Source: Zestosphaera tikiterensis (GTDB lineage: Archaea > Thermoproteota > Thermoprotei_A > Sulfolobales > NBVN01). From it: a stretch of 28,453 nucleotides of DNA. Position numbers and translations under genes: made by a program. How positions within the stretch are numbered: position 1 is the first letter of the stretch; the number at the start of each line of letters is the position of its first letter. The stretch spans positions 1 to 28,453 of the forward strand of contig NBVN01000009.1 of assembly GCA_003056265.1 (NCBI GenBank). The letters are read 5' to 3'. The notes beneath the pieces were generated by a model, which saw nothing but the letters and a program-made list of their open reading frames with translations, was not told where the DNA came from and made no database searches. This document shows positions 5,516-24,258 of this stretch, piece by piece.

Positions 5516-5526
5516 GACTTACCCCC

Positions 5527-6870: not shown

Positions 6871-7067
6871 GTAATATTAGAGGATACCTTAATAAACTTT
6901 ACGCATTAACAACGCCTAACTATCGATTAAAGACCTTCATTCTTCACGACTAAGACTGCGTCTACGCACTTCCCTGAAAGATATGCGTACCTATTGAGTT
7001 ACTGCTGACCTACTCAGTAAACCTGCAAAGCATTTAATGTTTAATAAGCTAGTTTTTACATTGAAAA

Positions 7068-8858
7068 CTACTTTAGCATTTCACTAACTTTATTTCTGTA
7101 ATATTCCAACGCTTTAATCATATACTCTTCAGTTATTAAGCCGTTGGGGGTGGGTATTTCAAAGATTCTCTTAGGTAGTTTAAGCTCATCGAGTTTATAC
7201 CCTAACGCTAGCTTAAGTTTTAACTTTTCTTTATATATTTCAAACCCTACCCTCCTTAAGTCCTCCTCACTTAATTTAAGTCCTAGAGGTGTTAACGCTT
7301 TAACGACTGTTGCTGGTTTGTAAGCCCCTCTAGCGAATAGGCAAAGAACTAAGGAAGTTAATACCTGCCTCCAAGCTTCCTCCTCAATTATCTCATCCAC
7401 GAGTTTCTCAGGTGGCGGGTATTGCTTTCCAATGTATTTCTGATCTATTGAGTAGCCAGCGTTGTCTAAGTGACTATGTCTTAACCCAACTAAATATCCT
7501 AAATGAGCGCCTGGACCCGTATGATATCCAGGCATTTCGTTTTTGCCGTACGTTAAAGCAAATTCCAACCCGCCGTATTTTCTAGCCGCTTCCTCTGTTC
7601 CTAAAGCTAGCGTTGCGTAGAACTCGTTTGGCTGCTTGACTATATACCTAACCATCTCTATGTAGGTCTTCCAATCACCCCATTCCGGCTTAACAAGCGT
7701 TTCCTTCTCGGTTATCAACCCTCTCTTAAAAGCTTCTGTAGTCCAAGCTAGGGCTACGCCAGTGCTCATAGCGTCTAGACCGGCTACGTCGACCTCCTCT
7801 ATAAGCCTTAGGAGGCCGTCCCTATCGCTTACGCCTAACATAGTTCCTAAAGCGTATATCGGTTCGTAATCGTAACCTATATACCTAGTCGTGTAGAAAT
7901 ACTTCTCATGCGGGTACCTCTCCCTAATAACCGCTATGTGTATGCACGCTACAGGGCAGTGAGCGCAGGCTACCCTCCTAGCAAGCGAGTATTCCGCGAA
8001 AGACTCGCCACTAAGTTTCTCAGCGTCTTCAAACTTACCTGAAGTTAAGTTCCTCGTGGGTAAGGCTCCCATGACGTTCAACGGCATTACGTTATGTGGA
8101 GTTCCTAAATCATGGTATTTCTGCATCACCGGGCTTTTAGTGATTTCATCGAATATCTCTTTATACACCTTTCTATATTCAGATACGTCAGCTACGGGGA
8201 CGGATCTCTTACCCCCAATCACCACAGCCTTAAGTTTTTTAGAACCCCATACAGCACCTAACCCCAACCTGCCGAAGTGTCTGTAGGTCTCAAGAACTAC
8301 AGACGCATACCTCACTAACCTCTCACCAGCTCTGCCTATCCTCATTATAGTTCTTAAACCAGGCCAAGGCTCCCTCTCACGTAAGACCTTACCTATAGTT
8401 AAGGAGCTCCTAACACCCCATAAAGCACTAGCGTCTTTAAACTCGACCTTACCCTCATGTATCGATAGATAGACAGGTATTTCACTAGCGCCTTTGATAA
8501 CTATAGCTCCATACCCGGCCATCCTAATGGCTATAGCCGCTCTACCGCCAGCGTGGGATTCACCTAAATTACCTGTTAGAGGAGATTTAAACATAGCCAC
8601 AACTTTAGACGCTGTGGGGTAAAGACCTGTTAACAAACCTATAGCTAACACCACAACGTTATCGGGGCTTAAAGGATCTACGTCGGGTCTCAACTCCTCC
8701 TTAAGGAGTTGCGTAGCTACGCCAGTACCGCCTAAGAACTTATTGAAGAGGTCGGGCCTCGACCTAACCCAGAAAGTCTTCCTGCTTAAGTCTATGTAAA
8801 GCACTCTATAGATTAACTCATCCTTAATCGGGTCAACCATATTAAGCCACCTCCTCAA
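7068..8858 (-). CDS. aor: Aldehyde:ferredoxin oxidoreductase family tungstoenzyme
   Basis: 596 aa. It has an AOR N-terminal domain ('LYIDLS......R.....F.GG.G.A..LL'), a 'GESHAGG' block, the [4Fe-4S] motif 'CAHCPVAC', and a late 'LVLCLFA' Cys. The subtype (AOR/FOR/WOR) cannot be resolved by eye. Confidence 0.85.
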   Translation of the reverse strand: MRRWLNMVDPIKDELIYRVLYIDLSRKTFWVRSRPDLFNKFLGGTGVATQLLKEELRPDVDPLSPDNVVVLAIGLLTGLYPTASKVVAMFKSPLTGNLGESHAGGRAAIAIRMAGYGAIVIKGASEIPVYLSIHEGKVEFKDASALWGVRSSLTIGKVLREREPWPGLRTIMRIGRAGERLVRYASVVLETYRHFGRLGLGAVWGSKKLKAVVIGGKRSVPVADVSEYRKVYKEIFDEITKSPVMQKYHDLGTPHNVMPLNVMGALPTRNLTSGKFEDAEKLSGESFAEYSLARRVACAHCPVACIHIAVIRERYPHEKYFYTTRYIGYDYEPIYALGTMLGVSDRDGLLRLIEEVDVAGLDAMSTGVALAWTTEAFKRGLITEKETLVKPEWGDWKTYIEMVRYIVKQPNEFYATLALGTEEAARKYGGLEFALTYGKNEMPGYHTGPGAHLGYLVGLRHSHLDNAGYSIDQKYIGKQYPPPEKLVDEIIEEEAWRQVLTSLVLCLFARGAYKPATVVKALTPLGLKLSEEDLRRVGFEIYKEKLKLKLALGYKLDELKLPKRIFEIPTPNGLITEEYMIKALEYYRNKVSEMLK

Positions 8859-9303
8859 GAGCTAAAACTCCGTAAGGACAGAAATCAACGCAATACCCGC
8901 AATGAACGCATATAACAGGTTTATTTGCGTAGACATCCCATTGAACGGCGTTGAAGGGGCATGCCTCCCTGCAATTCCCACAGCCTATACAGAGATTCGG
9001 GTTAAGTATGACTCCACCCCCGCTTCTAGGTATTAAGGCTTTAGTAGGGCATACCTTAGCACATGGCGGGTCTTTACACGCCCTACAAACTACAACTGTA
9101 AACCCTCTCTCAACCCCACCAACGCTCCTAACGTATATCGCAGTCCTACCTAATCCCCCTTCAGGAAATCTCCTAGCGCAAGCGAACATGCATGACATAC
9201 ACCCAACGCAGAGGTCAGGATCTGTAACCACTAACCTAACGTATTTACCGACTTGCTTAGTAGATGAGGACACACGCCCCAACCTCGTTATTTTAATATT
9301 CAT
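8842..9303 (-). CDS. 4x[4Fe-4S] ferredoxin-like electron-transfer subunit
   Basis: 153 aa with four Cys clusters: 'CVGCMSCMFAC', 'CRACKDPPCAKVC', 'CIGCGNCREAC', 'CVHCGYCVDFC'. Its 3' end overlaps the AOR start by 17 nt, which implies translational coupling. Confidence 0.8.
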   Translation of the reverse strand: MNIKITRLGRVSSSTKQVGKYVRLVVTDPDLCVGCMSCMFACARRFPEGGLGRTAIYVRSVGGVERGFTVVVCRACKDPPCAKVCPTKALIPRSGGGVILNPNLCIGCGNCREACPFNAVQWDVYANKPVICVHCGYCVDFCPYGVLALEEVA

Positions 9304-9331
9304 ATGTATGCGGTTCTTTATTAACTTTACA

Positions 9332-10069
9332 TTAAAGATGTTTTATTAACGTCCTATACTTGCTGATGTACTCTCTATTGCGTTCGCTACCCCCTGGAAC
9401 GTTAACGCTTGTCCACATCTCTGGAGCAATACCCTTCTCAAGAAGTTTCTCAGCAGCTCTAACATTCACCGCATGTAATATGAAGCTATTAACCATAGTT
9501 GATATGGGGAACGTCTTCACGTAGTCGTTAATTACGTAGGTAACGTCGCCTTCAGGGATTTTATTATCTATTACAACATCGGCGACTTCGTAAAGCCTCT
9601 TACCTAAGCTATTCTCAGGCTTTAAACTCATCGAATACTTCACTGAAGTTATCGCTACGACCTTAACGCCCCTCTCCTTAAAGGAATGAGCTAACTCCAC
9701 CGGGACGGCGTTCTTCCCCGAATTACTCACCACAACTAAGACGGAGTTAGGTAGTATCGGCGTCGATTCAACTAAGCTCTTCGCATAATTAGGAAGTTTC
9801 TCAAGTATAGATGCCCTAACAGCTGAAGGAACTCCTAAAAGCGAGAGATCTATGATTGGGTAAACCCTAACTAAACCGCCGGCTCTAAAGAAGACCTCAA
9901 GAGCTACTAGCATAGAATGACCTGTGCCAAACACATACTCAAACCCGCCCTTCTCTATCGCCTCAGCAACGTAGTCAGACGCCCGCTCTAAACTCTCCTC
10001 TCCCTCCTTAATCACTTTCTCCACGTGGTTGTGTAGTATATCGAATAGCTTACTGAATGTCTCAACCAC
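9332..10069 (-). CDS. SIS (sugar isomerase) domain protein, UPF0309-like
   Basis: 245 aa. 'VFGTGHSMLVALEVFFRAGGL' and 'VVVSNSGKNAVPVE' match the SIS phosphosugar-binding fold of the UPF0309 type. It lies only 28 bp upstream of the ferredoxin gene on the same strand. Confidence 0.65.
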   Translation of the reverse strand: MVETFSKLFDILHNHVEKVIKEGEESLERASDYVAEAIEKGGFEYVFGTGHSMLVALEVFFRAGGLVRVYPIIDLSLLGVPSAVRASILEKLPNYAKSLVESTPILPNSVLVVVSNSGKNAVPVELAHSFKERGVKVVAITSVKYSMSLKPENSLGKRLYEVADVVIDNKIPEGDVTYVINDYVKTFPISTMVNSFILHAVNVRAAEKLLEKGIAPEMWTSVNVPGGSERNREYISKYRTLIKHL

Positions 10070-10132
10070 GGTTTAACACTCTCAAACATTTTATGAGCGG
10101 CGTGTTATAAAGATTTCACTAAAGCTAAAAAC

Positions 10133-11335
10133 TCATTGATAAGCTTTAAAATACCAAGGAATTAACTGAACGACTTTACCGAAGACCACATTAACCATTC
10201 TATCCGGGCTTATGGGAGGTATGTACTCACCCGCGGTTTGAACTCTCCTGCTGAGGTTAACGTTCTCACCTTTTGAATACCTAGCTATAGCGCGAATCTT
10301 ATTTAACGTAGGCTCAATCTCCTTAAGTAGCTTTCTATTAGTTAACGTTTCCTCTAAATGCTTAACCATCTCTAAAGCTTCTTCAGCGTTTCGCTCCGTT
10401 ACGGTTTCTTCGATAGGGTTTAGAAAAGATGCTTTATTAAATTCGAGAAACAGTGTGAACCAATACCTAGCGTTTTTATTGATTACATATCCTACTGAAT
10501 TCCTTAATGACGTGTTTGAATCGTAGCTTAACCCTTCATACAACATGTCAGCTACTGTATACAAAGGTATTTTAGAAGCTTCCGGCTGATTCGCTAAGTT
10601 AGCGATATACCCCGACACTAGCTTTCTTAAGTTGCCGGTTCTACCACCTATAGGTCCTAAGTGAAGTCTGTAAATACCGTTAACTATGAAGTAATCGTTA
10701 ACTGGGTAGTTATCCCATATGAGGGGTTTACGCTTTAAAACATTCGAAATAAGCTCTAAATCCTCATCACTTATGATTACCGGAGCTACCTTCATCCCGG
10801 TCCAGGCAATATCGACTTCTGGATAGACCCGCTCACCCAACTCCCTCATATAATCCTCTACGATGCCGTAGTAGTAGGTAGGGCATAAAAACATCCTCTT
10901 AGGTCTTAATTCACTAAATAGTTTATTAGTTAAGGTTGACTGAGCCTCAGCTAAAGTTTTAAACCCCTCACCTCTAAGTGCGGGTGGTATGTCATCTAGT
11001 AATAAGGCTATGGACTCAACTCCTAACTCCATAACCTTAGTGTATTTTCTTATGAGGAGGTTAACATCATCTCGTGAGGAGTAGTTTATGTCTAAACCAG
11101 GGCTTAAAGCGAACACCACCTCCACGCCGTATTTCCTACCCACGCGGATTAAGTCGGCCATCCTCGATAAATCCTCTGAAGGGTATGGAGCCCTCCACCA
11201 CTCTCTATGGTACGGATCCCACTTAGGTGCGTAGACGTAGGTGTTTAGTTGAATCCTACCCAGAAATTCAATAAGTGAGATTCGATCCATCCAATCAAAG
11301 TAGGGACCGTAGAAACCTTCAACCACACCAAACAT
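10133..11335 (-). CDS. GH84 beta-N-acetylglucosaminidase (O-GlcNAcase homologue)
   Basis: 400 aa. It is near-collinear with the O-GlcNAcase catalytic domain: 'GVVEGFYGP', 'LNTYVYAPKWDPYHR', 'ALSPGLDI', the catalytic pair in 'ALLLDDI', 'CPTYY', 'WTGMKV', 'LIWDNYPVNDY'. No signal peptide is evident. Confidence 0.85.
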   Translation of the reverse strand: MFGVVEGFYGPYFDWMDRISLIEFLGRIQLNTYVYAPKWDPYHREWWRAPYPSEDLSRMADLIRVGRKYGVEVVFALSPGLDINYSSRDDVNLLIRKYTKVMELGVESIALLLDDIPPALRGEGFKTLAEAQSTLTNKLFSELRPKRMFLCPTYYYGIVEDYMRELGERVYPEVDIAWTGMKVAPVIISDEDLELISNVLKRKPLIWDNYPVNDYFIVNGIYRLHLGPIGGRTGNLRKLVSGYIANLANQPEASKIPLYTVADMLYEGLSYDSNTSLRNSVGYVINKNARYWFTLFLEFNKASFLNPIEETVTERNAEEALEMVKHLEETLTNRKLLKEIEPTLNKIRAIARYSKGENVNLSRRVQTAGEYIPPISPDRMVNVVFGKVVQLIPWYFKAYQ

Positions 11336-11360: not shown

Positions 11361-12425
11361 TTAAGTCCCTACCGAACATTCCTTTACCACAGCACTTATT
11401 AAAGCATCACTTACGTAAGCATCCCCTAAAACCTTCTTCAACGCTATTAAAGCCGAAGCGCAAGACGCCCTCATAAGGCTTCCCCTAACTATTAACTCAC
11501 ACGCGCTGAACTTACGTTCTAAACACTTAATCAATAAAGACTTAACCAACTCCTTATTGCCTTCGAAAACCCCACCCACAACTGAAACCTCCGGACACTT
11601 CATGCCTAACGCTTCAGCAGCGGCAACTATCTGCTCCGAAAATAAGCAGATCTCCCCTTCGATTATCTCCCTAGCTAAGGCATCGCCCTCTTTAAAAGCG
11701 TTAAACACGTAAGGCGCTAAAGACGCTACCAATCCCTTAGGGTCTTTAGACCTATAAACCGTTGCGAGCACATCACTAACGCTTCTCGATCCCAACCTAC
11801 TTTCAAGGAGTTTATGAAGCGTGGAATGTCTGTCCCTACCCTCTAAAAACTTAAGGTATTCCCTTAAAGCGTAATTTCCTATCCTGTAAGCACTTCCTTC
11901 ATCACCGAGTAAATGCCCCCAACCACCGAACCTTACGTTCCTACCTTTATAAACCCCAAATACGCAACTACCCGTGCCTAAAACAGCTACTATACCATCG
12001 CCGAAAGCAAAAGACGCTACATGAGCTGCTAGAACATCTTCGAAAACGTGGACTTGACTTAAGTCCATATTTAGAGACTTCCCTACAAAACTCCTAACCA
12101 CTTCCTTACTTTCTTCGTTTATAACGCCCGCCATACCTACGCCTAAAGCAACGACCTCAACATCCTTTAAGTTATTGACGAGCTTCCTAACACCGTTAAC
12201 AACGTTTTTACAAGCTACTTTAACTGACGTGGCTGAAGGATTCGCAGGCTTTGAACTCAACAAACCTACTAACGACCCGCTGAGGTCTAAAGCAGCAATC
12301 TCTGTTTTTGAAGCACCAGCGTCAACACCTAAAACAACTTTCTTCAAAGCAGGTGAACACCGAAGATACTTTATCCACGGTTTTAAATATCGTTGACGTA
12401 ACATTCTTAACTTACGGTTAAGCAT
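11361..12425 (-). CDS. BadF/BadG/BcrA/BcrD-type ATPase; predicted N-acetylglucosamine (or MurNAc/GlcNAc) kinase
   Basis: Phosphate-1 motif 'VLGVDAGASKTE', then 'VLGTGS' and 'GGWGHLLGDEGSAY', typical of NAGK/BadF-type sugar kinases. The ORF-track N-terminus is probably over-extended. A TTG at 12347 (giving M-KKVVLGVDAG) has GGTG about 11 nt upstream and an ATATTTAAAA box at 12390-12381. Confidence 0.7.
   Translation of the reverse strand: MLNRKLRMLRQRYLKPWIKYLRCSPALKKVVLGVDAGASKTEIAALDLSGSLVGLLSSKPANPSATSVKVACKNVVNGVRKLVNNLKDVEVVALGVGMAGVINEESKEVVRSFVGKSLNMDLSQVHVFEDVLAAHVASFAFGDGIVAVLGTGSCVFGVYKGRNVRFGGWGHLLGDEGSAYRIGNYALREYLKFLEGRDRHSTLHKLLESRLGSRSVSDVLATVYRSKDPKGLVASLAPYVFNAFKEGDALAREIIEGEICLFSEQIVAAAEALGMKCPEVSVVGGVFEGNKELVKSLLIKCLERKFSACELIVRGSLMRASCASALIALKKVLGDAYVSDALISAVVKECSVGT
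12381..12390 (-). promoter_or_regulatory. TATA-like box for the kinase/GH84/SIS transcription unit
   Basis: ATATTTAAAA on the minus strand, about 38 nt upstream of the candidate TTG start at 12347. Confidence 0.3.
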
Positions 12426-12481
12426 ATGAGGAGGAAAGTTTTTTATCTTTACTTAATCGATTTAATGAGGTTCAACAACAT

Positions 12482-13624
12482 ATGCGTGAGGTAAAGCACG
12501 TATGCGTGGATTTTAATGAGGATAGACTACATAGAGTCGAAAGCTTACTTAACACATACGTTAATCACGCGTTCCCAGGGGCGCATTTAACGGTCGTAAG
12601 CTGCGGCGACGTAGTTTTAGATGTGTTGCTAGGGTATGCCGAGATCACACCTTTAAGAAGGGGTTTAACACGTGATATGTTGTTTGATTTAGCGTCGTTA
12701 ACTAAGGTGTTGGTGACTTCCATAATCTACGGTAAGCTTGTTGAGGAAGGTTTAGTAAGCTTAAGACAGAAAGTTTCGGAGATAGTGCCTGAATTCGTTA
12801 AAACGGTTGCTGGAAGTAGTGAAATTAAGGAGAGGATAAGGCTTTGGATGCTTTTATCCCATGCCTCAGGTCTCCCACCTTGGATGCCGTTCTTTAAACT
12901 CGCTAATTCGAGGGAGGAGGTTTTCTCAGAAGCTGTTAAGGTTTTCCCGGCAAGCACGCCTGGAGAGGTTGTAACGTATAGTGACATAAACTATATAATA
13001 CTGACTTACATAGCTGAATTAATCACCGGTGAGAGGATAGATCGTCTATTCGAGAAATACGTGGTTAAAGCCCTAAACCTAAGGAGGACTTCATACAATC
13101 CTTTAACGCGTGGATTCAGTAAAGACGAAATAGTGGCTACTGAGGTTGACGAGAGACGCGGCGGTACGTTAGTAGGCGTTGTCCACGACGAAAACGCTTA
13201 CGTAATGAATGGCGTTTCAGGCCACGCAGGTCTTTTCTCATCTGTTGAGGACTCCGCAAAGCTGATTGTTGAGCTTATTAGATCTTACCGTGGTGAAAGC
13301 GACGCTCTACTCTCGCCAGTAATAACTCAAACTTTCCTAAGGCCTTGGGCATGCGACAGCAACCTATGCTACGGTATTGGATGGCGTGTCAACAGCCACG
13401 GTAAGGTAGACTTCGATCAGTTAACTGACTTGTGGGTTTCCACATCATTTAGCCATACGGGATTCACAGGTACTTCTATATGGTTTGCGCCTGAGTTGGA
13501 TCTAGCTATACTTCTATATACGAATAGAGTACATCCAAGTAGAGCTAATGAAGCGATAGTTAAGGTAAGGCCGTTAATACATAACGCCGTATTGTCTTCG
13601 ATTAAAGGCTTAAGAGGTGTTTAG
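12482..13624 (+). CDS. Beta-lactamase-fold serine hydrolase (class C / DD-peptidase / AmiE-like family)
   Basis: 380 aa. It has the S-x-x-K motif 'ASLTK', a second motif 'YSDINY' (usually Y-S-N), and a third motif 'SHTGFTGTS'. No signal peptide is evident. Its stop lies 2 nt before the anmK start. Confidence 0.75.
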   Translation: MREVKHVCVDFNEDRLHRVESLLNTYVNHAFPGAHLTVVSCGDVVLDVLLGYAEITPLRRGLTRDMLFDLASLTKVLVTSIIYGKLVEEGLVSLRQKVSEIVPEFVKTVAGSSEIKERIRLWMLLSHASGLPPWMPFFKLANSREEVFSEAVKVFPASTPGEVVTYSDINYIILTYIAELITGERIDRLFEKYVVKALNLRRTSYNPLTRGFSKDEIVATEVDERRGGTLVGVVHDENAYVMNGVSGHAGLFSSVEDSAKLIVELIRSYRGESDALLSPVITQTFLRPWACDSNLCYGIGWRVNSHGKVDFDQLTDLWVSTSFSHTGFTGTSIWFAPELDLAILLYTNRVHPSRANEAIVKVRPLIHNAVLSSIKGLRGV

Positions 13625-13626
13625 TA

Positions 13627-14832
13627 GTGAGCACCCTTAACAAACTGTCTGAAATCCTGCTTAAGGACAGGCGAGTGATGGTTGGCGCTATGTCTGGAAC
13701 TAGCGCCGACGGCGTTGACGTGATTTTGTTGGAGCTCGACGGTCATGGACAAAACATCAGATGGAGGGAGTTAGGCAAGTACTTCAAACCATACACTAAG
13801 GAGATTAAAAACGCCGTCTTAACGGCGTCTGAGAGGGGGTCAACACGTTTGGTTTGCTCTCTTAACGTTCGTGTGGGGATGTACTTCGGCATGGCTGTAA
13901 AGGAAGCTCTAGAGTACATTGGTATGACGACCGACGAGGTTGACGCTATAGGGTCTCACGGCCAGACAATATATCATATGCCGGAACTTACTTTCGATTT
14001 AGGTATTGGGACGCGATGCACCTTACAAATAGGTCATCCGTCAGTCATAGCTGAAGTTACTGGAATAACTACCGTAGGGGATTTCAGAATTAGGGATATA
14101 GCTGCCGGCGGTCATGGAGCACCCATAATAGCTTACGTTGATTGGGCGTTACTCTCAAGTAAGGCTACAGGTAGGTTAGTTCAAAACATAGGGGGTATTT
14201 CCAACGTGACTATACTGCCGCCTAACCCAAGCTTAGACGATGTAAAGGCTTTCGATATAGGCCCTGGCAACATGTTGATAGATCAAGCCGTGAGGATGTT
14301 ATACGGCGGTAGTTTAGAATACGACCCTAATGGAGAGATAGCATTAAGTGGTAGCGTCGACGAGAAGCTACTGAACGAGCTTATGGAACACCCATTCGTT
14401 AGGAAACCCCCACCTAAAACAGCTGGCAGGAGGGAATTCGGCTCCAGATGTTTAGCGCCCATACTGAAGAAAGCCCTTGAGAGAAACCTCGCTAAAGAAG
14501 ACGTAATAGCTACTTTAGCTATGTTTACGGTGAAAAGCATAATATATAACTACGATAAATACATCCTTTCAAAATACGGGAAGATCTTCTCTGAAGCCAT
14601 CGTAGGCGGTGGAGGCGTGCGGAATAAATTCATAATGAGGGAATTGACGAAAGAGCTTAAGATGAGAGGCATTAATGTCCTCACACATGAAGACTTAGGC
14701 ATAGACTCTAAATATAAAGAAGCATTAGGTATGGCTGTTCTAGCGCATGAAACACTCAGCGGAATCCCAAACAATGTAGTCGGAGCTACAGGAGCTAAGA
14801 AATACGTGATCATGGGAGTTATCTCCCCATAA
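13627..14832 (+). CDS. anmK: Anhydro-N-acetylmuramic acid kinase family protein (AnmK / levoglucosan kinase family)
   Basis: 401 aa. It aligns by eye along its whole length with E. coli AnmK: 'GAMSGTSADGVDV', 'IGSHGQTIYH', 'LQIG', 'VGDFRIRDIAAGGHGAP', 'NIGGISN', 'FDIGPGNMLID', 'PPPKTAGRREF', 'VGGGGVRN', and the C-terminal 'GATGA'. Alternative start at ATG 13678 (MVGAMSG). Confidence 0.85.
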   Translation: MSTLNKLSEILLKDRRVMVGAMSGTSADGVDVILLELDGHGQNIRWRELGKYFKPYTKEIKNAVLTASERGSTRLVCSLNVRVGMYFGMAVKEALEYIGMTTDEVDAIGSHGQTIYHMPELTFDLGIGTRCTLQIGHPSVIAEVTGITTVGDFRIRDIAAGGHGAPIIAYVDWALLSSKATGRLVQNIGGISNVTILPPNPSLDDVKAFDIGPGNMLIDQAVRMLYGGSLEYDPNGEIALSGSVDEKLLNELMEHPFVRKPPPKTAGRREFGSRCLAPILKKALERNLAKEDVIATLAMFTVKSIIYNYDKYILSKYGKIFSEAIVGGGGVRNKFIMRELTKELKMRGINVLTHEDLGIDSKYKEALGMAVLAHETLSGIPNNVVGATGAKKYVIMGVISP

Positions 14833-15043: not shown

Positions 15044-15889
15044 TTAATCTTCCAGCCTAAACCACGTTTTATTTAGCCTACCTTCATCAAAGTTTAGAAT
15101 TAAGCCTGACTGAAGAGGAACTTCATCAACGCGTCCTTCACTCCTTAAGTGTAACGCTAAAGTTGATGAAACCACAGCATATACGTTCCTACCTTCATAT
15201 TCGTAAAGCTTATAGTAATCAACCTCTTTAACGTTACCTAACCTACCTTTATTCAGGTATGACGTGACTACAGCAATTAAGCTCGACGTGTTGAAAGCTA
15301 ACGCTATTGTGTTTAACGCGGTTTTCGTGAATTTAACAGCCCTTCTGTAAGCGTTAATTAAGCTTTCCCGACTTAACTCACTTATCTGCGAGTATATGTA
15401 GGTTCCAAGCACGTACGTATCTGAAACATCTAAATTATCAAACTCCCTTAAGTTTAAAGCTTTAGTGAGTTCCTCCTTTAAAGCTGTTCCATTATGTACT
15501 AACCAATAATCAAATCCTCTCCCGCTGAAGTAAAATGGGTGTGCGTTAAAAGCGTTTTTAGAACCTATCGACGCCTTCCTTGAATGAAGGATTAACACGT
15601 AATTAAAACTGTCTTTAAGTACATCCAACAGTGAGTTAACCCCAGCTACATCCTTAAAGACTGGTTTAGAGGTTTTATAGCTTGCGATGCGAGCATCGCC
15701 TCCTTTACCATCCCAGCCTACAACTACATAACCCCAGCCGTCGTCATGAGAAGCACATCCCTCTTTACCCGTTAAGGACGCTAAGTACGGATCACATTCG
15801 CTTGATTTAATGAAAGCTTCAACAACCTCGTTAGGGTTTGAGGCATTGGAAGTTACGTTTAAACCTACGATTAAAGCTATCCTACACAT
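15044..15889 (-). CDS. Stand-alone class II (Ntn) glutamine amidotransferase-like protein (YafJ/EgtC type)
   Basis: I place the start at ATG 15889 so the mature protein begins 'MCRIALIVG', as Ntn-type GATases require Cys directly after Met. The ORF-track start at 15985 adds 32 aa and overlaps the HAD gene. 'HSRKAS', 'NAHPF' and 'VHNG' motifs are intact. Confidence 0.7.
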   Translation of the reverse strand: MCRIALIVGLNVTSNASNPNEVVEAFIKSSECDPYLASLTGKEGCASHDDGWGYVVVGWDGKGGDARIASYKTSKPVFKDVAGVNSLLDVLKDSFNYVLILHSRKASIGSKNAFNAHPFYFSGRGFDYWLVHNGTALKEELTKALNLREFDNLDVSDTYVLGTYIYSQISELSRESLINAYRRAVKFTKTALNTIALAFNTSSLIAVVTSYLNKGRLGNVKEVDYYKLYEYEGRNVYAVVSSTLALHLRSEGRVDEVPLQSGLILNFDEGRLNKTWFRLED

Positions 15890-15908: not shown

Positions 15909-16637
15909 CTACTTATTAAAACTTGAGCGTAACTTAAATAAAGCACTAGGTAATTGCTGCAGGTTCTCCACCACGTCGTCAGCAACTACTGAAGCGTCAA
16001 TACTTAATAACCTACGGTATGTGTCTTCATATATGGATCTCCATCTAAGGACATGTATGGCTTTAAACCCGAACGTCTTAGGGAAGTAAACGTCGAAAAC
16101 GTAACTGTCTCCAACGGTGATTAACTCACCGGAGCTATCACAGCATGAGTAGAAATTCCGACAGTTTTTAAGGCAGCCAACTCTGTCAGGACTTACTATA
16201 AGGTCGAAATACCTGTTTAAACCCGATTCCCTAATAACGCATTCCTGATACTTCATCAACCCATTCGTCGATAAAACCAGTTTATAACCTAAGTCTCTCA
16301 ACTTCTGAAGTACTTCATAAGCATTGTCAAGTATCTTAACTTCCTTACAGAAATGTTTGGAAAACCTACCCTCTATGTCTGCCTTATACCTAACTCCCAA
16401 CACCTTACTTACCTCATCAGCTATATAATCCCAATCGAAAGCCCTTGGGGTCGACATCTTAATTAAGTTTAAATGTATATTCATAGCTTGAGTAACAACG
16501 AATTCTTTAGTACGCCCGGATAACATAGCCAGCTCTTCATATGCTTTATTTATTAATGAAGATATCGGTGAAACCACCAACGTGTTGTCTAAGTCTATCA
16601 TCAACACGACTTCACTCAACTCACGCCAACACCGCAT
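15909..16637 (-). CDS. HAD-superfamily hydrolase (probable phosphatase)
   Basis: Motif I 'IDLDNTL', motif II 'LVLSTNG', motif IV 'VGDSYVFDV'. The start is more likely ATG 16601 (MIDLDNTL), since HAD motif I normally sits at the extreme N-terminus. Confidence 0.65.
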   Translation of the reverse strand: MRCWRELSEVVLMIDLDNTLVVSPISSLINKAYEELAMLSGRTKEFVVTQAMNIHLNLIKMSTPRAFDWDYIADEVSKVLGVRYKADIEGRFSKHFCKEVKILDNAYEVLQKLRDLGYKLVLSTNGLMKYQECVIRESGLNRYFDLIVSPDRVGCLKNCRNFYSCCDSSGELITVGDSYVFDVYFPKTFGFKAIHVLRWRSIYEDTYRRLLSIDASVVADDVVENLQQLPSALFKLRSSFNK

Positions 16638-16732: not shown

Positions 16733-17914
16733 ATGGGTTTAATACTTAGGCATGCCCACATAATAACGCCAACCCACGAAATACGGGACGGCTATATAGT
16801 TATTGATGAGAATGGAGACATAAGTGAGGTTGGTTGGGAACCTCTAAAGAATGAATTAGGATATGACGAACTATCCCTCGACGGTTATTTAGTTGGTCCT
16901 GGATTCATAGATACTCACATACATGGCTTTAAAGGTATAGACGTTATGAACGCGTCAGCAAGCGATATGGTTAAGTTAGCTAAGGAATTAACGACCCGCG
17001 GGGTCACGTCCTTCATACCAACTACTGTATCGGCTCCCCATGAAGACTTACTTAAGGTGTGTAGAGTCGTTAAAGAAGTTATGGGCTTCAACGACATCTA
17101 CGGAGCTAGGATTTTAGGCTTACATCTCGAGGGGCCCTACATAAACCCTGAAAAAGCTGGAGCGCACAATAAAGACTTTATACGTGACCCTAACGTAACC
17201 GAATTTAATCAATACCTCCTAGAGTCAGGGGGGTTTATAAGGGAGGTTACTATAGCTCCAGAGCTTCGAGGTAGTTTAGACTTCATAAAATACGTAAGTA
17301 GTAAGGGCGTGGTTGTTCAAGTAGGTCATACGGAAGCCTCATATGAAACCACTTTAAAAGCCATAGCTTACGGAGCTAGTAAAGCAACACATCTCTACAA
17401 CGCTATGGGGTCGATACATCATAGATCGCCTGGAGCTCCTATAGCCCTTCTATCATCTAAGGAAGTCTTCATAGAGTTGATAGCTGATTATATCCACGTA
17501 GCACCTGAAATGCTTAAGTTTACGATAGATTACGCAAGACATGATAGGGTGGTTTTAATTACGGACGCCATTTCAGCTGCGGGGTTAGGGGACGGTGATT
17601 ATCTACTGGGAGGTCTTGAAGTCGTTGTAAAGGACGGCATAGCTAGGTTGAAATCCACAGGAGCCTTAGCCGGGAGTACGTTAACTATGGATAAAGCGTT
17701 GAAGAACGTAAGGGCTTTAGGTTATAGTTTAGAACAGACCTTCACCATGCTTTCAACCACCCCAGCGAAATCCGTAGGCGCTGTATTTAAAGAGAGGGTA
17801 GGTCTTATAAAGCCCGGTTTCAAAGCAGATCTGGTAGTTTTGAATAACTCGTTAGATGTTGTTGCTACGTTCGTAAACGGCAACCTAATATATAAGGGAA
17901 TGTTGCCGGTTTAG
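16733..17914 (+). CDS. nagA: N-acetylglucosamine-6-phosphate deacetylase
   Basis: 393 aa. NagA blocks present: 'PGFIDTHIHG', 'LHLEGPYINPEKAGAH', 'VGHTEASY', 'THLYNAM', 'ELIADYIHV', 'LITDAISAAGL', 'GSTLTMD'. Confidence 0.85.
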   Translation: MGLILRHAHIITPTHEIRDGYIVIDENGDISEVGWEPLKNELGYDELSLDGYLVGPGFIDTHIHGFKGIDVMNASASDMVKLAKELTTRGVTSFIPTTVSAPHEDLLKVCRVVKEVMGFNDIYGARILGLHLEGPYINPEKAGAHNKDFIRDPNVTEFNQYLLESGGFIREVTIAPELRGSLDFIKYVSSKGVVVQVGHTEASYETTLKAIAYGASKATHLYNAMGSIHHRSPGAPIALLSSKEVFIELIADYIHVAPEMLKFTIDYARHDRVVLITDAISAAGLGDGDYLLGGLEVVVKDGIARLKSTGALAGSTLTMDKALKNVRALGYSLEQTFTMLSTTPAKSVGAVFKERVGLIKPGFKADLVVLNNSLDVVATFVNGNLIYKGMLPV

Positions 17915-17955: not shown

Positions 17956-19791
17956 GTGATGATTGTGGGAGGCTTAATAGCTGTTAAATCAAAGAAGGGA
18001 ATTAACGCCATAGAGGCCTCTTTAGAGAGCCTTAAGAGAATGGAATTCCGTGGTAGGGATTCCAGCGGGTTGGCGTTCTTAATTCAAGGCAAGATAGAAG
18101 TGATTAAGGATGCCGTCCCTGTAGACATATTAAGCAAGTCTTACGACTTAAGCAGTTTTAAATCTGACGTAGTGTTAGGACATACCAGATATTCCACACA
18201 CGGTAAGGCCGATAAGGTGAACGCGCATCCACATATAGACTGTAGAGGGTCTGTAGCGGTGGTGGGTGACGGGGCTTTAATAAATTATGAGGACCTCCTG
18301 ACTAAATTGCTTAGTGAGAATCATTTAGTGAGGTCTAAATGCGATTTTGAGGTAGTGCCTCATTTAATAGAGTTTCTAACGGTTTCCGAAGGGTCTTCGT
18401 TATTAAAAGCTACTTTAGATGCGTTTAAGTTTTTAAGAGGTGTTTTCTCATTAGCTGCGTTGCTTTCCGACGGGCATATCGTAGCTTACACGAGTAAGCA
18501 ACCGCTTTACGTTGGTGAAGGTAATGAATTCACATCAATAGCTTCTACTAAGTCAGGTCTTTACGGGATAGCTGAGGTTTACACAACTCTTGAGGATGGT
18601 GAGGTATTGCTTCTAACGCCGGGAGGTGATATGAAGTTCGTTGATAGCGAGGGTCGGACAGTGTTTAAGGTTTTTAAACCGCTTGACTTAAGCCCTTCGT
18701 TGGTTAGTACGGATGGGTACCCCCACCACATGCTTAGGGAGGTTTATGAAATCCCCTACGCTATTTTAAGAACGTACTCAGCAGTGCAGAGGAAATACCT
18801 TGAGTTGGTGGGTAGGGTCTTAGCGCAAAGCGATAACGTATACGTAGTTGCTAACGGCACGAGCTTACATGCGGGTATGATATTCGCTTACTACCTCTCT
18901 GAGTTAGCTGGTAAGGTACCTATAGTCATCAGCGCTGCTGAGTTTCCATACTATTACGTAGATAAGGTGAAGGTTGGTGACGCTGTAATAGCTGTAAGTC
19001 AGTCTGGAGAGACTAGAGATGTTTTAAAATCGGCTTACGAGGCTAGACTACATGGAGCTACGGTAGTAGGTTTAACTAACAACATAAACTCAAGACTAAC
19101 TAGGTTCTCCAACATCTACTTACCTATAGGAGCTGGGCCTGAAATCTCAGTACCGGCTACTAAGACCTTCACCTCAACAGTTGTTTTACTGTATATGGTG
19201 GCGTTGGCTACGGCTTTAGCTTCTAAAACGTTAAGTTCTGAAGCCCTCGATAAAGTCTTCGAGGATTTAAGCAACCTATCGTCAACTCTACTAAGCGTTA
19301 TAGATAAGTTAAACGCCGTAGCTAAAGAGAAGGCTAAGTTAATAGCTGGTAAACGCAGTGGGTACGTAGTTTCTAGAGGTTTAACATACCCCCTAGCTTT
19401 AGAAGCAGCTTTAAAAATAAAGGAAGCTTCCTACATCCACGCCGAGGGGGTGCAGGGAGGGGAGCTTAGACACGGTCCTATATCAATACTCGATAAGGAT
19501 ATGTTCACGATATTTATAGAACCTCTTGAGGAGGACGCAGCGAGAGATATACATAAGTTAGCAAGTGAGGTTTTAGATTATGGAGCTTCAACGCTACTTA
19601 TAAGGTCTGAAGGTTTAGTGGACGTTAAGGAAGTCAACCTTGAAGTTATTGAAGTACCGAAATCCAGTAACAAACACCTAACGGTGATACCGCTCTCTCT
19701 AGCTGCGCAGTTGCTGTCTTACTGGATCGCAAACTACGTTGGATCACCTATAGACAAGCCTAGGAGGTTATTTAAAGTCGTCTCCAACTAA
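17956..19791 (+). CDS. GlmS-family protein (glutamine--fructose-6-phosphate aminotransferase-like) lacking the N-terminal catalytic cysteine
   Basis: 611 aa. The two-SIS isomerase half is intact ('SQSGETRD', 'LKIKEASYIHAEG..GGELRHGP', C-terminal 'DKPRRLFKV'). The glutaminase half retains 'RGRDSSG', 'GHTRYSTHG' and 'NAHPH'. However, the protein starts 'MMIVGG' rather than 'MCGI', and 'HNG' is replaced by 'GDG'. An in-frame TAA at 17929-17931 rules out an upstream Cys. Confidence 0.8.
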   Translation: MMIVGGLIAVKSKKGINAIEASLESLKRMEFRGRDSSGLAFLIQGKIEVIKDAVPVDILSKSYDLSSFKSDVVLGHTRYSTHGKADKVNAHPHIDCRGSVAVVGDGALINYEDLLTKLLSENHLVRSKCDFEVVPHLIEFLTVSEGSSLLKATLDAFKFLRGVFSLAALLSDGHIVAYTSKQPLYVGEGNEFTSIASTKSGLYGIAEVYTTLEDGEVLLLTPGGDMKFVDSEGRTVFKVFKPLDLSPSLVSTDGYPHHMLREVYEIPYAILRTYSAVQRKYLELVGRVLAQSDNVYVVANGTSLHAGMIFAYYLSELAGKVPIVISAAEFPYYYVDKVKVGDAVIAVSQSGETRDVLKSAYEARLHGATVVGLTNNINSRLTRFSNIYLPIGAGPEISVPATKTFTSTVVLLYMVALATALASKTLSSEALDKVFEDLSNLSSTLLSVIDKLNAVAKEKAKLIAGKRSGYVVSRGLTYPLALEAALKIKEASYIHAEGVQGGELRHGPISILDKDMFTIFIEPLEEDAARDIHKLASEVLDYGASTLLIRSEGLVDVKEVNLEVIEVPKSSNKHLTVIPLSLAAQLLSYWIANYVGSPIDKPRRLFKVVSN

Positions 19792-20596: not shown

Positions 20597-21373
20597 TTAA
20601 CGTTGATTGAAAGCAACGACAACCGCTTTTTCATCTTTAAGGATACGTACCCTCACACCATATACGGCATATATTACTTCCTCGGTTAAAGCCTCCTCAG
20701 GCGAGCCCATAGCATATACTTTACCGTCTTTCATCACTACCACCTTATCTGAATAGCGATATGCTAAGCTAAGGTCGTGAAGCGCCATTACTACTACGAG
20801 CCTTCTGTCTCTAGCTAGCTGTTTAATTAACTCAGCAACTTCAAGCTGGTAGTAAAGGTCTAAACTTGCTGTAGGTTCATCAAGTAGAAGTATGCGTGGT
20901 TCAACCACTAAAGCCCGCGCGATTAAAGCCCTCTGGAGCTCACCCCCGCTTAACTCCGTGATCTTCTTAAAGGCTTTTTCCTCAAGGTTTACTAACTTAA
21001 GCACTTCAAAAACCTTTCTGTGATCCTTACCACCCGGCATGAAAGCTATGTATGGCTTCCTACCCGACAGTACAAAATCAAATACTGTGAAGGGGTAAAG
21101 GTGCTCAAGCCTTTGAGGTACGTAACCAAAGAGCTTAGCTATCTCCTTCCTACCCATGCTACCTAAGGATTTCCCATCGACGTATACAGACCCACTTAAC
21201 GGTTTGAAGATCCCGTCAAGCGTTTTAAGTAATGTAGTTTTCCCTGAGCCGTTAGGCCCAACAACAGACACTACTTCACCCTCACGTGCTTCAAAAGTAA
21301 CGCCCTTCAACGCTTTAAAGCTTCCGTAACTAAATTCAACGTTACCTACCTTCAGCAACACCACGCCTACCAC
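20597..21373 (-). CDS. ABC transporter ATP-binding protein (FepC/FecE/BtuD type)
   Basis: Walker A 'GPNGSGKTT', signature 'LSGGELQR', Walker B 'LLLDEPT', H-loop 'ALHDL'. It overlaps the upstream permease gene. Confidence 0.85.
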   Translation of the reverse strand: MVGVVLLKVGNVEFSYGSFKALKGVTFEAREGEVVSVVGPNGSGKTTLLKTLDGIFKPLSGSVYVDGKSLGSMGRKEIAKLFGYVPQRLEHLYPFTVFDFVLSGRKPYIAFMPGGKDHRKVFEVLKLVNLEEKAFKKITELSGGELQRALIARALVVEPRILLLDEPTASLDLYYQLEVAELIKQLARDRRLVVVMALHDLSLAYRYSDKVVVMKDGKVYAMGSPEEALTEEVIYAVYGVRVRILKDEKAVVVAFNQR

Positions 21374-22406
21374 CTAAAAGCAAAGCTATCAGGAGGGGAA
21401 CCCCCACAAGAGTTGTGGTTATGCCGACAGGCAACGTCACAGGATTTAAAACAACACGGCCTAAGAAGTCAGCAGCTAACACTATCAAAGATCCGTAGAG
21501 GGTAGCGGCAAAAACGCTTCTACGGGTGTTCCAACCCACTGTAAGCCTAGCTGCGTGAGAAGCTAGAAGACCGGCAAAACCTATTACGCCAACTAAAGAT
21601 ACTGAAACCGCCGTGAACAAAGATGAGGTAAGTAAAGCTACGAACCTAACTACCTTAACGTTAACACCGCTTGAAACAGCTACCTCATCCCCTAACGATA
21701 TTAAGTCTAAGTCCATAGATAACGCTGTGAAGAGAATAGTAGCTGCTGAAGCTATTAGTAAAAGCAACCAAACATCGAACCAACTCACACGCCCTACATC
21801 GCCGAAAGTCCAGAAAAGCAACGTAGCCACCTGCACTTCGTTGAAGTATAGGTATTGAAGTAGTGAAAGAGCTGCTTGCGAAGCAAACGAAAGAGCTATG
21901 GAAGCTAGTATCACGGCATATATAGAAAGCCCTACCGAATAAGCTAGAAAGAGTATTAGAAAAGACTGTATAGTGGCTCCAGCAAAAGCTAATGCCGACA
22001 CTACGTAGGGATTCACCATAACGACGGTGGATGATGTCGCTGACCTAGGCCCGATAATCGATATAGCTCCAAAAGCCGTCATCGCCACCCCGACGCCGAG
22101 AGCCGCCGCGTGTTGTATGCCTAGCGTGAAAGGCGACGCTAACGGATTTCTTAAAACGTTCTGAAGCGCTATGGAAGACACTCCAAGGATCGCACCAACA
22201 GCTATTGAGGTTAACCCTCTACGTAATCTCATATCGATAACCACACGTAATGGGTCTTCAAGCATTCCCCGACTACCCATTACGTTAATTAAGTCTGTTA
22301 ACGAAACCTTATAAAACCCTCCGAAACTTAACGAAGCAAGGAAAAAAGCGAACACCGCAGTTAGGAGGAGTAAATATATGACGTTTATTCTCAACGCGTT
22401 ACTCAA
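21342..22406 (-). CDS. FecCD/BtuC-family ABC transporter permease
   Basis: 354 aa and polytopic. 'LRNPLASPFTLGIQHAAALG' and 'GVIGFAGLLASHAARL' are typical FecCD blocks. Confidence 0.85.
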   Translation of the reverse strand: MSNALRINVIYLLLLTAVFAFFLASLSFGGFYKVSLTDLINVMGSRGMLEDPLRVVIDMRLRRGLTSIAVGAILGVSSIALQNVLRNPLASPFTLGIQHAAALGVGVAMTAFGAISIIGPRSATSSTVVMVNPYVVSALAFAGATIQSFLILFLAYSVGLSIYAVILASIALSFASQAALSLLQYLYFNEVQVATLLFWTFGDVGRVSWFDVWLLLLIASAATILFTALSMDLDLISLGDEVAVSSGVNVKVVRFVALLTSSLFTAVSVSLVGVIGFAGLLASHAARLTVGWNTRRSVFAATLYGSLIVLAADFLGRVVLNPVTLPVGITTTLVGVPLLIALLLGGRRGVAEGR

Positions 22407-22417
22407 TATCTACACAC

Positions 22418-23572: not shown

Positions 23573-24258
23573 GTTTCAACACCTCCAACCTTAACAGGGT
23601 ATTTAAACGTTCTTTCAATCCCCCTCCCCACCACGGCTGAGGTTCCTACGCCGGCGCAGGCCGGACATAGGTAAGTACCGTTGACTACCACGGCTTTAGT
23701 AATCATTAATAACTCCCCGCATTTACCGCATCTAACGCTTTCGTATATACCAGCCCTCTCTATAGGCTCGACCTCAACCTCCTCTATCGTAAACTCCTCA
23801 ACGGGTAGGTTAGCCATCTTATAAGCTAACTCCTCCCACACCCTACTTAATTTCTCACGATCTTCAGGAGTTCCTTCACGTCTTCGAACAACCTTATCAA
23901 ATAGCTGCAGAGCTTCACTTGAGAAATACTTAGATCTAATCCTCTCTGAATCTACGTAAACCCGCACACCCCTCCATAAACCCCTCCTAACTAAAGTTAC
24001 GGCGTTCTTCCCTAAGTCCACGTAGATCAAGCTATTATTGCCTAAGGTGCAGCCAGTCGCTACCTGAACGCCGTCAACCAAACAATTATTTACCTCAACA
24101 ATAGCTAACAACTCCTCACCGACAGTTTCCTCCTCACCCGCCCTCAACACACCCAACCTCTCCATAGCTATTTCAGACATCCTTAAACCCAAAACAAGAA
24201 ACGGACATAGATGCCCGTGAAACCACCTCGCCTTCTCAATCAAAACCTTATCAACCAT
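23569..24258 (-). CDS. FmdE/FwdE-family protein with C-terminal zinc ribbon
   Basis: 229 aa. It has the 'FHGHLCPFLVLGLRM' FmdE signature, plus 'CGKCGE...CPAC'. There is a 4-nt overlap with the SBP gene. Confidence 0.75.
   Translation of the reverse strand: MVDKVLIEKARWFHGHLCPFLVLGLRMSEIAMERLGVLRAGEEETVGEELLAIVEVNNCLVDGVQVATGCTLGNNSLIYVDLGKNAVTLVRRGLWRGVRVYVDSERIRSKYFSSEALQLFDKVVRRREGTPEDREKLSRVWEELAYKMANLPVEEFTIEEVEVEPIERAGIYESVRCGKCGELLMITKAVVVNGTYLCPACAGVGTSAVVGRGIERTFKYPVKVGGVET

Follow-up and report, generated by a model that had tools for sequence, protein, structure and literature searches.

An AnmK-family anhydro-sugar kinase in a Thermoproteota gene island predicted to break down bacterial murein fragments

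The stretch of DNA analysed here, 28,453 nucleotides of contig NBVN01000009.1 from Zestosphaera tikiterensis (hereafter the window), carries at 13627..14832 on the forward strand a gene of the AnmK family, the kinase family that phosphorylates 1,6-anhydro-N-acetylmuramic acid (anhMurNAc) and opens its ring in the murein recycling of Escherichia coli. The open reading frame (ORF) begins with GTG, encodes 401 amino acids and ends in TAA. Pfam model PF03702 (AnmK) covers the protein from end to end (model positions 3-366 of 367; E=3e-94; 316.5 bits against a cut-off of 24), and the NCBIfam AnmK equivalog NF007148 is passed with 414 bits against a curated cut-off of 387; under the other NCBIfam AnmK sub-models the protein stays below the cut-offs. 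Alignment with AnmK of E. coli K-12 gives 37% identity over 386 residues (E=9e-62), and each of the conserved blocks that a preliminary description of this DNA had listed as common to both proteins is visible in it. An AlphaFold2 model computed with 38 archaeal sequences has a predicted local distance difference test score (pLDDT) of 92.5 and a predicted template modelling score (pTM) of 0.91. Residues critical in PaAnmK are S12, D14, T97, R129, N168, D182 (the general base) and E326 (bioRxiv 10.64898/2026.03.13.711553; PMC10570956). They correspond to S26, D28, T114, R154, N193, D210 and E365 of the window protein, where all seven are present, and they are invariant in the 38 archaeal sequences. 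Judged by its sequence, 13627..14832 encodes a genuine AnmK-family protein of full length, as had been proposed, with its catalytic residues intact.

The gene is tightly coupled to that of a serine hydrolase, with the coordinates originally read from the sequence. The coupling junction (13614..13629, forward strand) comprises a Shine-Dalgarno-like GAGGTG (13614-13619), the TAG stop of the hydrolase (13622-13624) and the GTG of AnmK (13627-13629), so that the stop lies 2 nt before the start codon and the GAGGTG 7 nt upstream of it. Initiation at this GTG gives the kinase a 17-residue N-terminal extension. Because the extension is common to the archaeal clade of AnmK proteins, with R16 nearly invariant, the GTG start is supported.

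The coupled gene (12482..13624, forward strand) encodes a PBP4B/AmiE-like serine hydrolase of the beta-lactamase fold (PF00144, E=1.1e-47), predicted to be cytoplasmic. Its best NCBIfam match is PBP4B, at 191 bits and under the equivalog cut-off of 385; on this score it is a relative of the PBP4B family and not an equivalog. With E. coli YfeW (PBP4B) the protein shares 29% identity over 373 amino acids (E=3e-47) and the SxxK (SLTK), YSD, HDE, GVSGHAGLFS and HTGxTGT blocks. The alignment begins at YfeW residue 35, leaving out the N-terminal ~34 residues that hold the export region, and no hydrophobic N-terminus that could act as an export signal was found in the window hydrolase; in this it differs from PBP4B, which is periplasmic, and from AmiE, which is secreted. 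In E. coli, yfeW is the third gene of the murQ-murP operon (PMC5061867), and in Bacillus subtilis the exo-MurNAc-L-Ala amidase (MurNAc, N-acetylmuramic acid) of the murQ operon, AmiE, also belongs to PF00144 (PMC10653849, Table 1; PMC8054146). The hydrolase-AnmK pair is kept in divergent archaea (loci L003, L006/L007, L089 and L091), in Chloroflexota and in Firmicutes. This conservation across archaea and bacteria, together with the homology of the hydrolase to PBP4B and its place in the Pfam family of AmiE, makes it very probable that the two enzymes act on the same molecule, as their coupling had suggested at the outset. Since Pfam and NCBIfam scans revealed no Amidase_2 or Amidase_3 gene in the island, we infer that the hydrolase is a (anhydro)MurNAc-peptide amidase or a stem-peptide peptidase, which would release (anhydro)MurNAc to AnmK.

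The preliminary description had regarded the physiological substrate as open. Similarity to solved structures was dropped as a criterion because levoglucosan kinase (LGK) and AnmK score about equally: the best Protein Data Bank (PDB) sequence matches of the window protein stand at 199 (LGK) versus 196 bits (AnmK), and its fold matches at TMq 0.89 (LGK) versus 0.83-0.86 (AnmK). PaAnmK T97 and R129, the reported contacts to the N-acetyl and lactyl groups, were dropped as well, given that LGK keeps both and that they cannot separate the two enzymes. As the published contacts do not discriminate, we replaced them by a comparative test over the 74 positions with a conservation of 90% or more in a set of 23 AnmKs with solved structures or a MurQ-linked gene. 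LGK deviates at 13 of these 74, which in window numbering are H117, P119, T132, Q134, G136, G162, A208, A239, L249, L372, T388, G389 and A390. Several fall in recognizable elements: H117, P119, T132 and Q134 belong to the beta-hairpin gating the site for anhMurNAc (PaAnmK 96-110; PMC10570956), G136 (PaAnmK G111) lies just past it, and T388, G389 and A390, 3 of the 13, make up a C-terminal TGA motif. At all 13 positions the archaeal clade agrees with AnmK, and at none does the window protein carry the LGK residue; the clade departs from the AnmK consensus at two conservative positions only, L167I and F369M. The residue comparison with AnmK and LGK that had been suggested earlier found the AnmK residue at every discriminating position. 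Levoglucosan is disfavoured as substrate because of this agreement, and residue patterns and gene context point to the canonical 1,6-anhydro-MurNAc, derived from the murein of other organisms, so that the earlier view of an open substrate needs revising. One segment sets the closest relatives apart. In the subclade of the window protein (at least 57% identity; P0002 to P0022) the second gating loop reads PPKTA[GS]RREFG, versus PPKTTGRE in all other archaeal and bacterial sequences; the change lies at 14383-14445 (AnmK residues 253-273) and amounts, in PaAnmK numbering, to T236A and E239R.

The neighbours of AnmK were then compared in an AnmK-seeded survey of 80 genome loci, with the nearest non-Thermoproteota homologues listed at 38-44% identity. 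Neighbours were counted within 10 kb, by simple ORF calling and seeded tblastn thresholds, over loci that are not phylogenetically independent. MurQ accompanies AnmK in 34 of the 80 listed loci, mostly abutting it, and five representatives score above NCBIfam cut-offs. GH3 NagZ-like genes occur in 21 loci and DUF1343/NamZ-like genes in 14; about 20 have a beta-lactamase-fold hydrolase, in many cases immediately upstream of AnmK and on its strand, like that of the window, and BadF/G kinases and Opp-type binding proteins occur in about 15 each. With its MurQ, NagZ-like and NamZ-like neighbours, the kinase subfamily of the window is embedded in the murein recycling of murein-containing bacteria. 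Archaeal loci show such arrangements too. Both Culexarchaeia loci (L008, L009) have a kinase, MurQ, NamZ-like and NagZ-like genes and then AnmK; an uncultured archaeon (L064) has MurQ, a NamZ-like gene, NagA and AnmK, and Haloprofundus (L082) has AnmK, the hydrolase and NamZ-like and NagZ-like genes. On two Thermoproteota contigs (L006, L007; 54-56% identity) AnmK is convergent with a gene of the hydrolase family, and an Opp/Dpp-type ABC importer and glycosidases adjoin.

The distribution of archaeal AnmKs, which the preliminary description had proposed to survey, comprises a sizeable clade and further separate branches among bacteria. Members of the clade are 45-99% identical to the window protein and carry the labels Sulfolobales, Desulfurococcaceae, Thermoproteota, 'Thaumarchaeota' and Methanomethylicota. 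Long assemblies with related AnmK genes include GCA_033581075.1, GCA_038884355.1 and GCA_053491535.1. In a quick neighbour-joining tree, drawn without support values, the Thermoproteota and Culexarchaeia/Methanomethylicota sequences, including the window protein, L008 and L009, form one clade whose sister is a thermophilic Firmicute; some of its members are linked to MurQ and others to a protein of the SIS_2 type described below. The AnmKs of Haloprofundus, Nitrososphaera and L064 each fall outside it, in separate places among the bacterial sequences, which suggests several independent horizontal transfers to archaea. GC content is even across the island, and composition therefore gives no sign of recent transfer. 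As for the host, an origin of the window from an uncultured archaeon (Thermoproteota) is supported. The best named matches of the PdxS protein encoded in the window are from Pyrobaculum, Thermoproteus, Vulcanisaeta and Caldivirga (74-77%), followed by metagenome-assembled genomes of Sulfolobales/Desulfurococcales, and no cultured organism close to it was found among the PdxS matches. The contigs of the nearest AnmK relatives carry archaeal hallmark genes, namely those for a CarS-like protein, family-B DNA polymerase, eIF-5A, ribosomal protein L35Ae and Orc/Cdc6, all in keeping with the initial expectation of an archaeal host without known murein. To our knowledge, Thermoproteota do not make murein.

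MurQ, the enzyme that acts after AnmK in bacteria, was not found in the window. In the same island, at 9332..10069 on the reverse strand, lies a gene for a UPF0309/NagS-like SIS_2 protein (PF13580, E=2.4e-38; NF002805, 260 bits). Among the NCBIfam models it matches NF002805 only and none for MurQ, and a pairwise BLASTP comparison with E. coli MurQ was not significant. Within the AnmK-seeded set, MurQ is likewise absent from the loci of L003 (an 83%-identical relative, in which the whole island is conserved), L005 and L043; these three and the window all carry SIS_2. The Desulfurococcaceae-type contig L005 carries SIS_2, GNAT and AnmK in this order, and in the NC10 bacterium L043 SIS_2 stands directly downstream of AnmK, in the slot that MurQ usually occupies. 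As an independent test of linkage we scanned metagenomes with four SIS_2 proteins as seeds, which yielded 80 loci, 52 of them at least 4 kb long. AnmK was directly upstream and co-directional in 21 of the 80 (14 of the 52 longer loci); among the latter NagA adjoins in 14 and MurQ in only 1. Two archaeal-type metagenome contigs recovered in this way carry compact operons, with the orders NagA-hydrolase-AnmK-SIS_2 (L091) and hydrolase-AnmK-SIS_2 (L089). The bacterial SIS_2-linked AnmKs belong to a different clade from the archaeal ones, plus one separate branch.

The SIS_2 protein is 34.4% identical to NagS of Streptomyces (SCO4393, PDB 9eol; E=7.5e-37) and keeps all residues essential or important in NagS (PMC12680351): the essential H53, R64, E94 and D179, then S91 and N228, together with the phosphate-binding serines. 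The six named residues are invariant in AnmK-linked SIS_2 proteins, which have an invariant glutamate (E57) where NagS has Asp60. NagS orthologues share at least 58.7% identity, and homologues of ~30% identity outside Streptomycetaceae fail to dehydrate N-acetylglucosamine-6-phosphate (GlcNAc-6-P), in assays that used this substrate and did not include MurNAc-6-phosphate (MurNAc-6-P) (PMC12680351). At 34.4%, the window protein lies below the orthologue range; its neighbours are amino-sugar genes, and dmdR1, the linkage partner of NagS, was not seen near it. NagS removes O3 and forms a C2=C3 double bond (PMC12680351). Expulsion of the 3-O-lactyl group calls for just such an elimination. Profile comparison by hhalign of 14 SIS_2 with 10 MurQ proteins gave a probability of 92.6% and placed the invariant SIS_2 residues E57 and E89 on MurQ E83 and E114, both nearly invariant in the MurQ alignment (A5). 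We take these two to be the catalytic glutamates of MurQ (Hadi et al. 2008, Biochemistry). The correspondence supports a MurQ-like working of the SIS_2 protein and not its membership of the MurQ family. Given its linkage to AnmK and NagA, the rarity of MurQ alongside, the aligned glutamates and the elimination chemistry of NagS, we predict that the UPF0309 SIS_2 protein is a non-orthologous MurNAc-6-P etherase/lyase, and give this an even chance or thereabouts.

Three further observations concern the loci of AnmK and SIS_2. Transporters of the sodium:solute symporter family (SSF) lie near AnmK in seven loci (L005, L022, L026, L036, L054, L059 and L073). Those near AnmK or SIS_2, such as L005 3106-4614 and L099 13873-15420, recur among archaea as well as Planctomycetota-type bacteria and are candidates for the import of (anhydro)MurNAc. 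A protein of ~310 amino acids without NCBIfam match adjoins AnmK in Haloprofundus (L082 9039-10010), a Nitrososphaera metagenome-assembled genome and several Chloroflexota (L029, L033, L076 and L077 being the loci besides L082). Finally, L096 and L099 hold at about 5500-11000 a variant with the order NagA-hydrolase-SIS_2-GH84-BadF/G kinase and no AnmK within 8 kb, flanked in L099 by genes for archaeal EF-2, 5-oxoprolinase (pxpCBA-like) and an SSF transporter. The AnmK-less variant is carried by the 497 kb contig ERZ1669249 NODE-2, and it suggests a route for non-anhydro MurNAc through the kinase.

The remaining genes of the island are largely those of amino-sugar metabolism. Next to the SIS_2 gene, a GH84-type beta-N-acetylglucosaminidase, for which we predict the role of NagZ, the removal of GlcNAc from GlcNAc-(anh)MurNAc, is encoded at 10133..11335 on the reverse strand (PF07555, E=4.1e-84). 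The protein has a DD pair in LLLDDIP, and its gene is conserved in L003, L096 and L099. GH84 enzymes are best known for taking N-acetylglucosamine (GlcNAc) off glycoproteins. A BadF/BadG sugar kinase (11361..12425, reverse strand; PF01869, E=2e-28; NagK_SO3507 as best NCBIfam match) is NagK/MurK-like and may act on GlcNAc and possibly MurNAc. Translation of it probably begins at a codon further downstream than the listed ATG; the orthologue in L003 has 331 amino acids. Between this kinase-GH84-SIS_2 arm and the hydrolase-AnmK arm lies a divergent A/T-rich intergenic region of 56 bp (12426-12481, TTTTTTATCTTTACTTAATCGATTTAAT), which probably holds both archaeal promoters. Downstream of AnmK, a GlcNAc-6-P deacetylase, NagA, is encoded at 16733..17914 (forward strand; TIGR00221, 320 bits against a cut-off of 226). 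It is followed at 17956..19791, also on the forward strand, by a GlmS-like protein whose glutaminase nucleophile is lost (TIGR01135, 436 bits against 418, aligned only from profile position 11). Compared with E. coli GlmS, Cys1 (MCGIVG) is replaced by Gly and N98 (HNGIIEN) by Asp, and the same holds for L003 (9554-11380). We predict a glutaminase-dead glucosamine-6-phosphate (GlcN-6-P) deaminase, a catabolic role that the loss of the nucleophile would fit.

Two genes stand between AnmK and NagA. A class-II glutamine-amidotransferase-like Ntn hydrolase (reverse strand; GATase_6, GATase_4) occupies 15044..15889, the listed ORF extending to 15985. The listed TTG start (15985) overlaps the adjacent HAD gene by 77 nt, and the start is probably Met33, at 15889, where MCRIAL would expose the Ntn cysteine. 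The neighbour (15909..16637, reverse strand; PF00702, PF13419) encodes a HAD-family phosphatase-like protein. The pair is conserved next to AnmK in L003 only, and the Ntn hydrolase is a doubtful member of the pathway; one may speculate about the processing of gamma-glutamyl or isoglutamine portions of the stem peptide, or of sugar phosphates. No signal sequence was found in any protein of the cluster.

Put together, these genes lead us to propose, with a probability of roughly 70%, that the window AnmK works in a horizontally acquired, bacterial-type, cytoplasmic pathway that breaks down murein fragments of neighbouring bacteria. A transporter would import GlcNAc-(anhydro)MurNAc-peptides, the GH84 enzyme would take off GlcNAc, and the PBP4B/AmiE-like hydrolase would strip or trim the stem peptide. 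AnmK would then open the 1,6-anhydro ring with water and transfer phosphate from ATP to give MurNAc-6-P, from which the UPF0309 protein would eliminate D-lactate in the stead of MurQ. NagA would deacetylate the product and the Cys-less GlmS-like protein would deaminate GlcN-6-P to fructose-6-phosphate (fructose-6-P). Free GlcNAc, possibly joined by MurNAc, would enter the route through the BadF/G kinase. Family membership, the intact catalytic residues, the AnmK-type residue pattern and the conserved gene linkage are observations; what the proposal adds to them concerns substrates, flux direction and the ecological origin of the fragments. It is supported by the same gene sets and orders in murein-containing bacteria and by the MurQ and NamZ-like genes at other archaeal loci. 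Also in its favour are the conservation of the whole island in L003, the PBP4B homology of the hydrolase, the lack of signal sequences in the cluster, the acquisition of such genes by eukaryotes that have no murein (bioRxiv 10.64898/2026.03.13.711553; PMC13198582) and the secretion of murein hydrolases by archaea (PMC12352652). Several points weigh against it. No muropeptide transporter, lytic transglycosylase or lysozyme was found in the 28 kb window, whose only ABC system is of the FecCD type; with no MurQ there either, a complete pathway requires a correct SIS_2 prediction or a MurQ encoded elsewhere. AnmK stands alone in unrelated context in the Sulfolobales contigs L001 and L004, the changed gating loop of the subclade could mean altered specificity or gating, and LGK matches the protein as well as AnmK does among solved structures.

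How far the single steps hold is a separate matter. The pathway may run as proposed with a SIS_2 protein that is no etherase, MurQ being encoded elsewhere in the genome and SIS_2 catalysing, for instance, a NagS-like dehydration or a sugar-phosphate isomerisation. Our view of the genome is limited to 28 kb, the protein has no significant pairwise similarity to E. coli MurQ, and at 34% identity to NagS it resembles the ~30% homologues that are inactive on GlcNAc-6-P (PMC12680351); most bacterial SIS_2-linked AnmKs moreover fall in one clade, so that the linkage could be partly inherited rather than repeatedly selected. The SIS_2-seeded scan, with AnmK and NagA so frequent and MurQ so rare, speaks for the etherase, as do the four SIS_2 loci without MurQ, among them the one with SIS_2 in the MurQ slot, the placement of E57/E89 on E83/E114 and a NagS chemistry (PMC12680351) that is the elimination needed to release the lactyl group. 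A SIS_2 protein with another function is an alternative of real weight, if not a probable one. A similar doubt attaches to the hydrolase, which could be a DD-carboxypeptidase/D-aminopeptidase-type enzyme on the stem peptide, with the amidase step left to another enzyme. Its PBP4B score under the equivalog cut-off would fit this, and so would the peptidases and esterases, the archaeal Pab87 (2qmi) among them, that follow as its next-best relatives in the PDB. We think it less likely than not, considering that the island holds no Amidase_2 or Amidase_3 gene to take the amidase step, that AmiE sets the precedent of a PF00144 protein acting as MurNAc-L-Ala amidase (PMC10653849; PMC8054146) and that the strict order of hydrolase, then AnmK, in many loci fits the handing over of a product to the enzyme that uses it.

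Two other explanations would take murein out of the picture. The island might recycle a glycoconjugate of the archaeon itself, such as amino sugars of its S-layer or N-glycans or an undescribed wall polymer, with AnmK acting on a self-made anhydro amino sugar; the retention of AnmK across a sizeable Thermoproteota clade, at times alone, the clade-specific change of the gating loop and the usual task of GH84 enzymes would all agree with this. We consider it improbable, because no enzyme forming 1,6-anhydro sugars is known from these archaea or was seen in them, bacteria that do contain murein have the same sets of genes in the same order, and MurQ and NamZ-like genes, specific for muramic acid, are present at some archaeal loci; the scatter of archaeal AnmKs among bacterial ones (Haloprofundus, Nitrososphaera and L064 separately) fits repeated horizontal transfer instead. 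More remote still is an enzyme that phosphorylates levoglucosan or another non-muramic anhydro sugar. LGK does equal AnmK among the best PDB sequence and fold matches, and the retention of T97 and R129 in LGK makes these residues compatible with either enzyme, but the archaeal clade is AnmK-like at 13/13 positions where LGK departs, and the neighbouring genes are all for N-acetyl amino sugars or peptides and none for glucose.

Genes for aldehyde:ferredoxin oxidoreductase and a 4Fe-4S polyferredoxin (7068-9303, reverse strand) flank the island, as they do in L003, where the oxidoreductase is 91% identical; upstream of them, 5527-6870 encodes a protein with DUF438, hemerythrin and PAS domains. 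Genes for ThiM, ThiE and a ThiL-like AIRS protein lie at 1-2423, a FecCD-type ABC system with an FmdE-domain protein at 20597-24258 and PdxS/PdxT at 24442-26072. An M24 peptidase (4424-5515) was rejected as a member of the pathway, as unrelated genes lie in between and it has no match in L003 or other loci. No tRNA or Rfam elements were found in the window.

Among the pools of bacterial necromass murein ranks with the largest, and bacteria are usually held responsible for its degradation. If the murein pathway proposed here is real, some Thermoproteota consume bacterial cell walls directly, and a whole recycling pathway has moved across domains and been turned to catabolic use. Archaea were recently found to secrete murein hydrolases, in a study that left the nutritional question open (PMC12352652); the pathway would complement that finding on the nutritional side. 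What is new is the prediction of a testable MurNAc-6-P etherase function for the orphan UPF0309 family, whose members outside Streptomyces have no known substrate. In its widest form the proposal would make UPF0309 outside Streptomycetaceae a second MurNAc-6-P etherase/lyase family, with Thermoproteota and some bacteria (NC10/Methylomirabilota-like) running a complete MurQ-independent pathway from anhydromuropeptide to fructose-6-P and hot-spring archaea eating murein directly; we put this a little short of evens. The enzymes of the island should be thermostable and may serve to make MurNAc-6-P and related probes. The system is overall a variant of known recycling systems, and its main interest lies in the ecology of cross-domain scavenging and in the etherase prediction. 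In the literature we found nothing on archaeal AnmK, on an archaeal muropeptide catabolic island or on the function of UPF0309 proteins outside Streptomyces.

Comparison with known systems places the island closest in logic to the anhydromuropeptide recycling of E. coli (AmpG, NagZ, AmpD, AnmK, MurQ, NagA, NagB), which is likewise cytoplasmic and of which AnmK and NagA are true homologues. The common steps are removal of GlcNAc, removal of the peptide, phosphorylation and ring opening of anhMurNAc, removal of lactate, deacetylation and deamination. Four predicted stand-ins distinguish the window: GH84 for the GH3 NagZ, the PBP4B/AmiE-like hydrolase for AmpD, UPF0309 for MurQ and the Cys-less GlmS-like protein for NagB. 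Unlike E. coli, the host has no known murein, the pathway would be catabolic or scavenging with no anabolic branch, and AmpG was not found in the window. The B. subtilis murQ-murR-murP-amiE-nagZ-namZ operon (PMC8054146, PMC5061867) also has an AmiE-type PF00144 hydrolase among its MurNAc genes, and there, too, a GlcNAcase and then an amidase act in sequence. Its enzymes are secreted and MurNAc enters by the phosphotransferase system, whereas the proteins of the window are signal-less and an anhydro-sugar kinase is used.

Of the single enzymes, LGK of Lipomyces starkeyi (PDB 4yh5, 4zlu) has the same fold and the same chemistry of ring opening and phosphoryl transfer as the window AnmK, with an overall similarity equal to that of AnmK; it differs at the 13 conserved AnmK positions, and its gene lies in an unrelated context. 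The window SIS_2 protein shares the UPF0309 family with Streptomyces NagS, whose catalytic residues it keeps; proteins of the window type are linked to AnmK and NagA, and NagS to dmdR1. A bacterial murein-recycling kinase is also kept by eukaryotes without murein, namely ticks, rotifers, ciliates and fungi. Ticks carry an acquired anmK (bioRxiv 10.64898/2026.03.13.711553), and anaerobic ciliates carry pbp4b, namZ, anmK and murQ, which has been read as digestion of bacterial walls (PMC13198582). Unlike in these eukaryotes, the recipient here is an archaeon, the genes are gathered in an operon-like island, and one step is predicted to be carried out by a non-orthologous enzyme.

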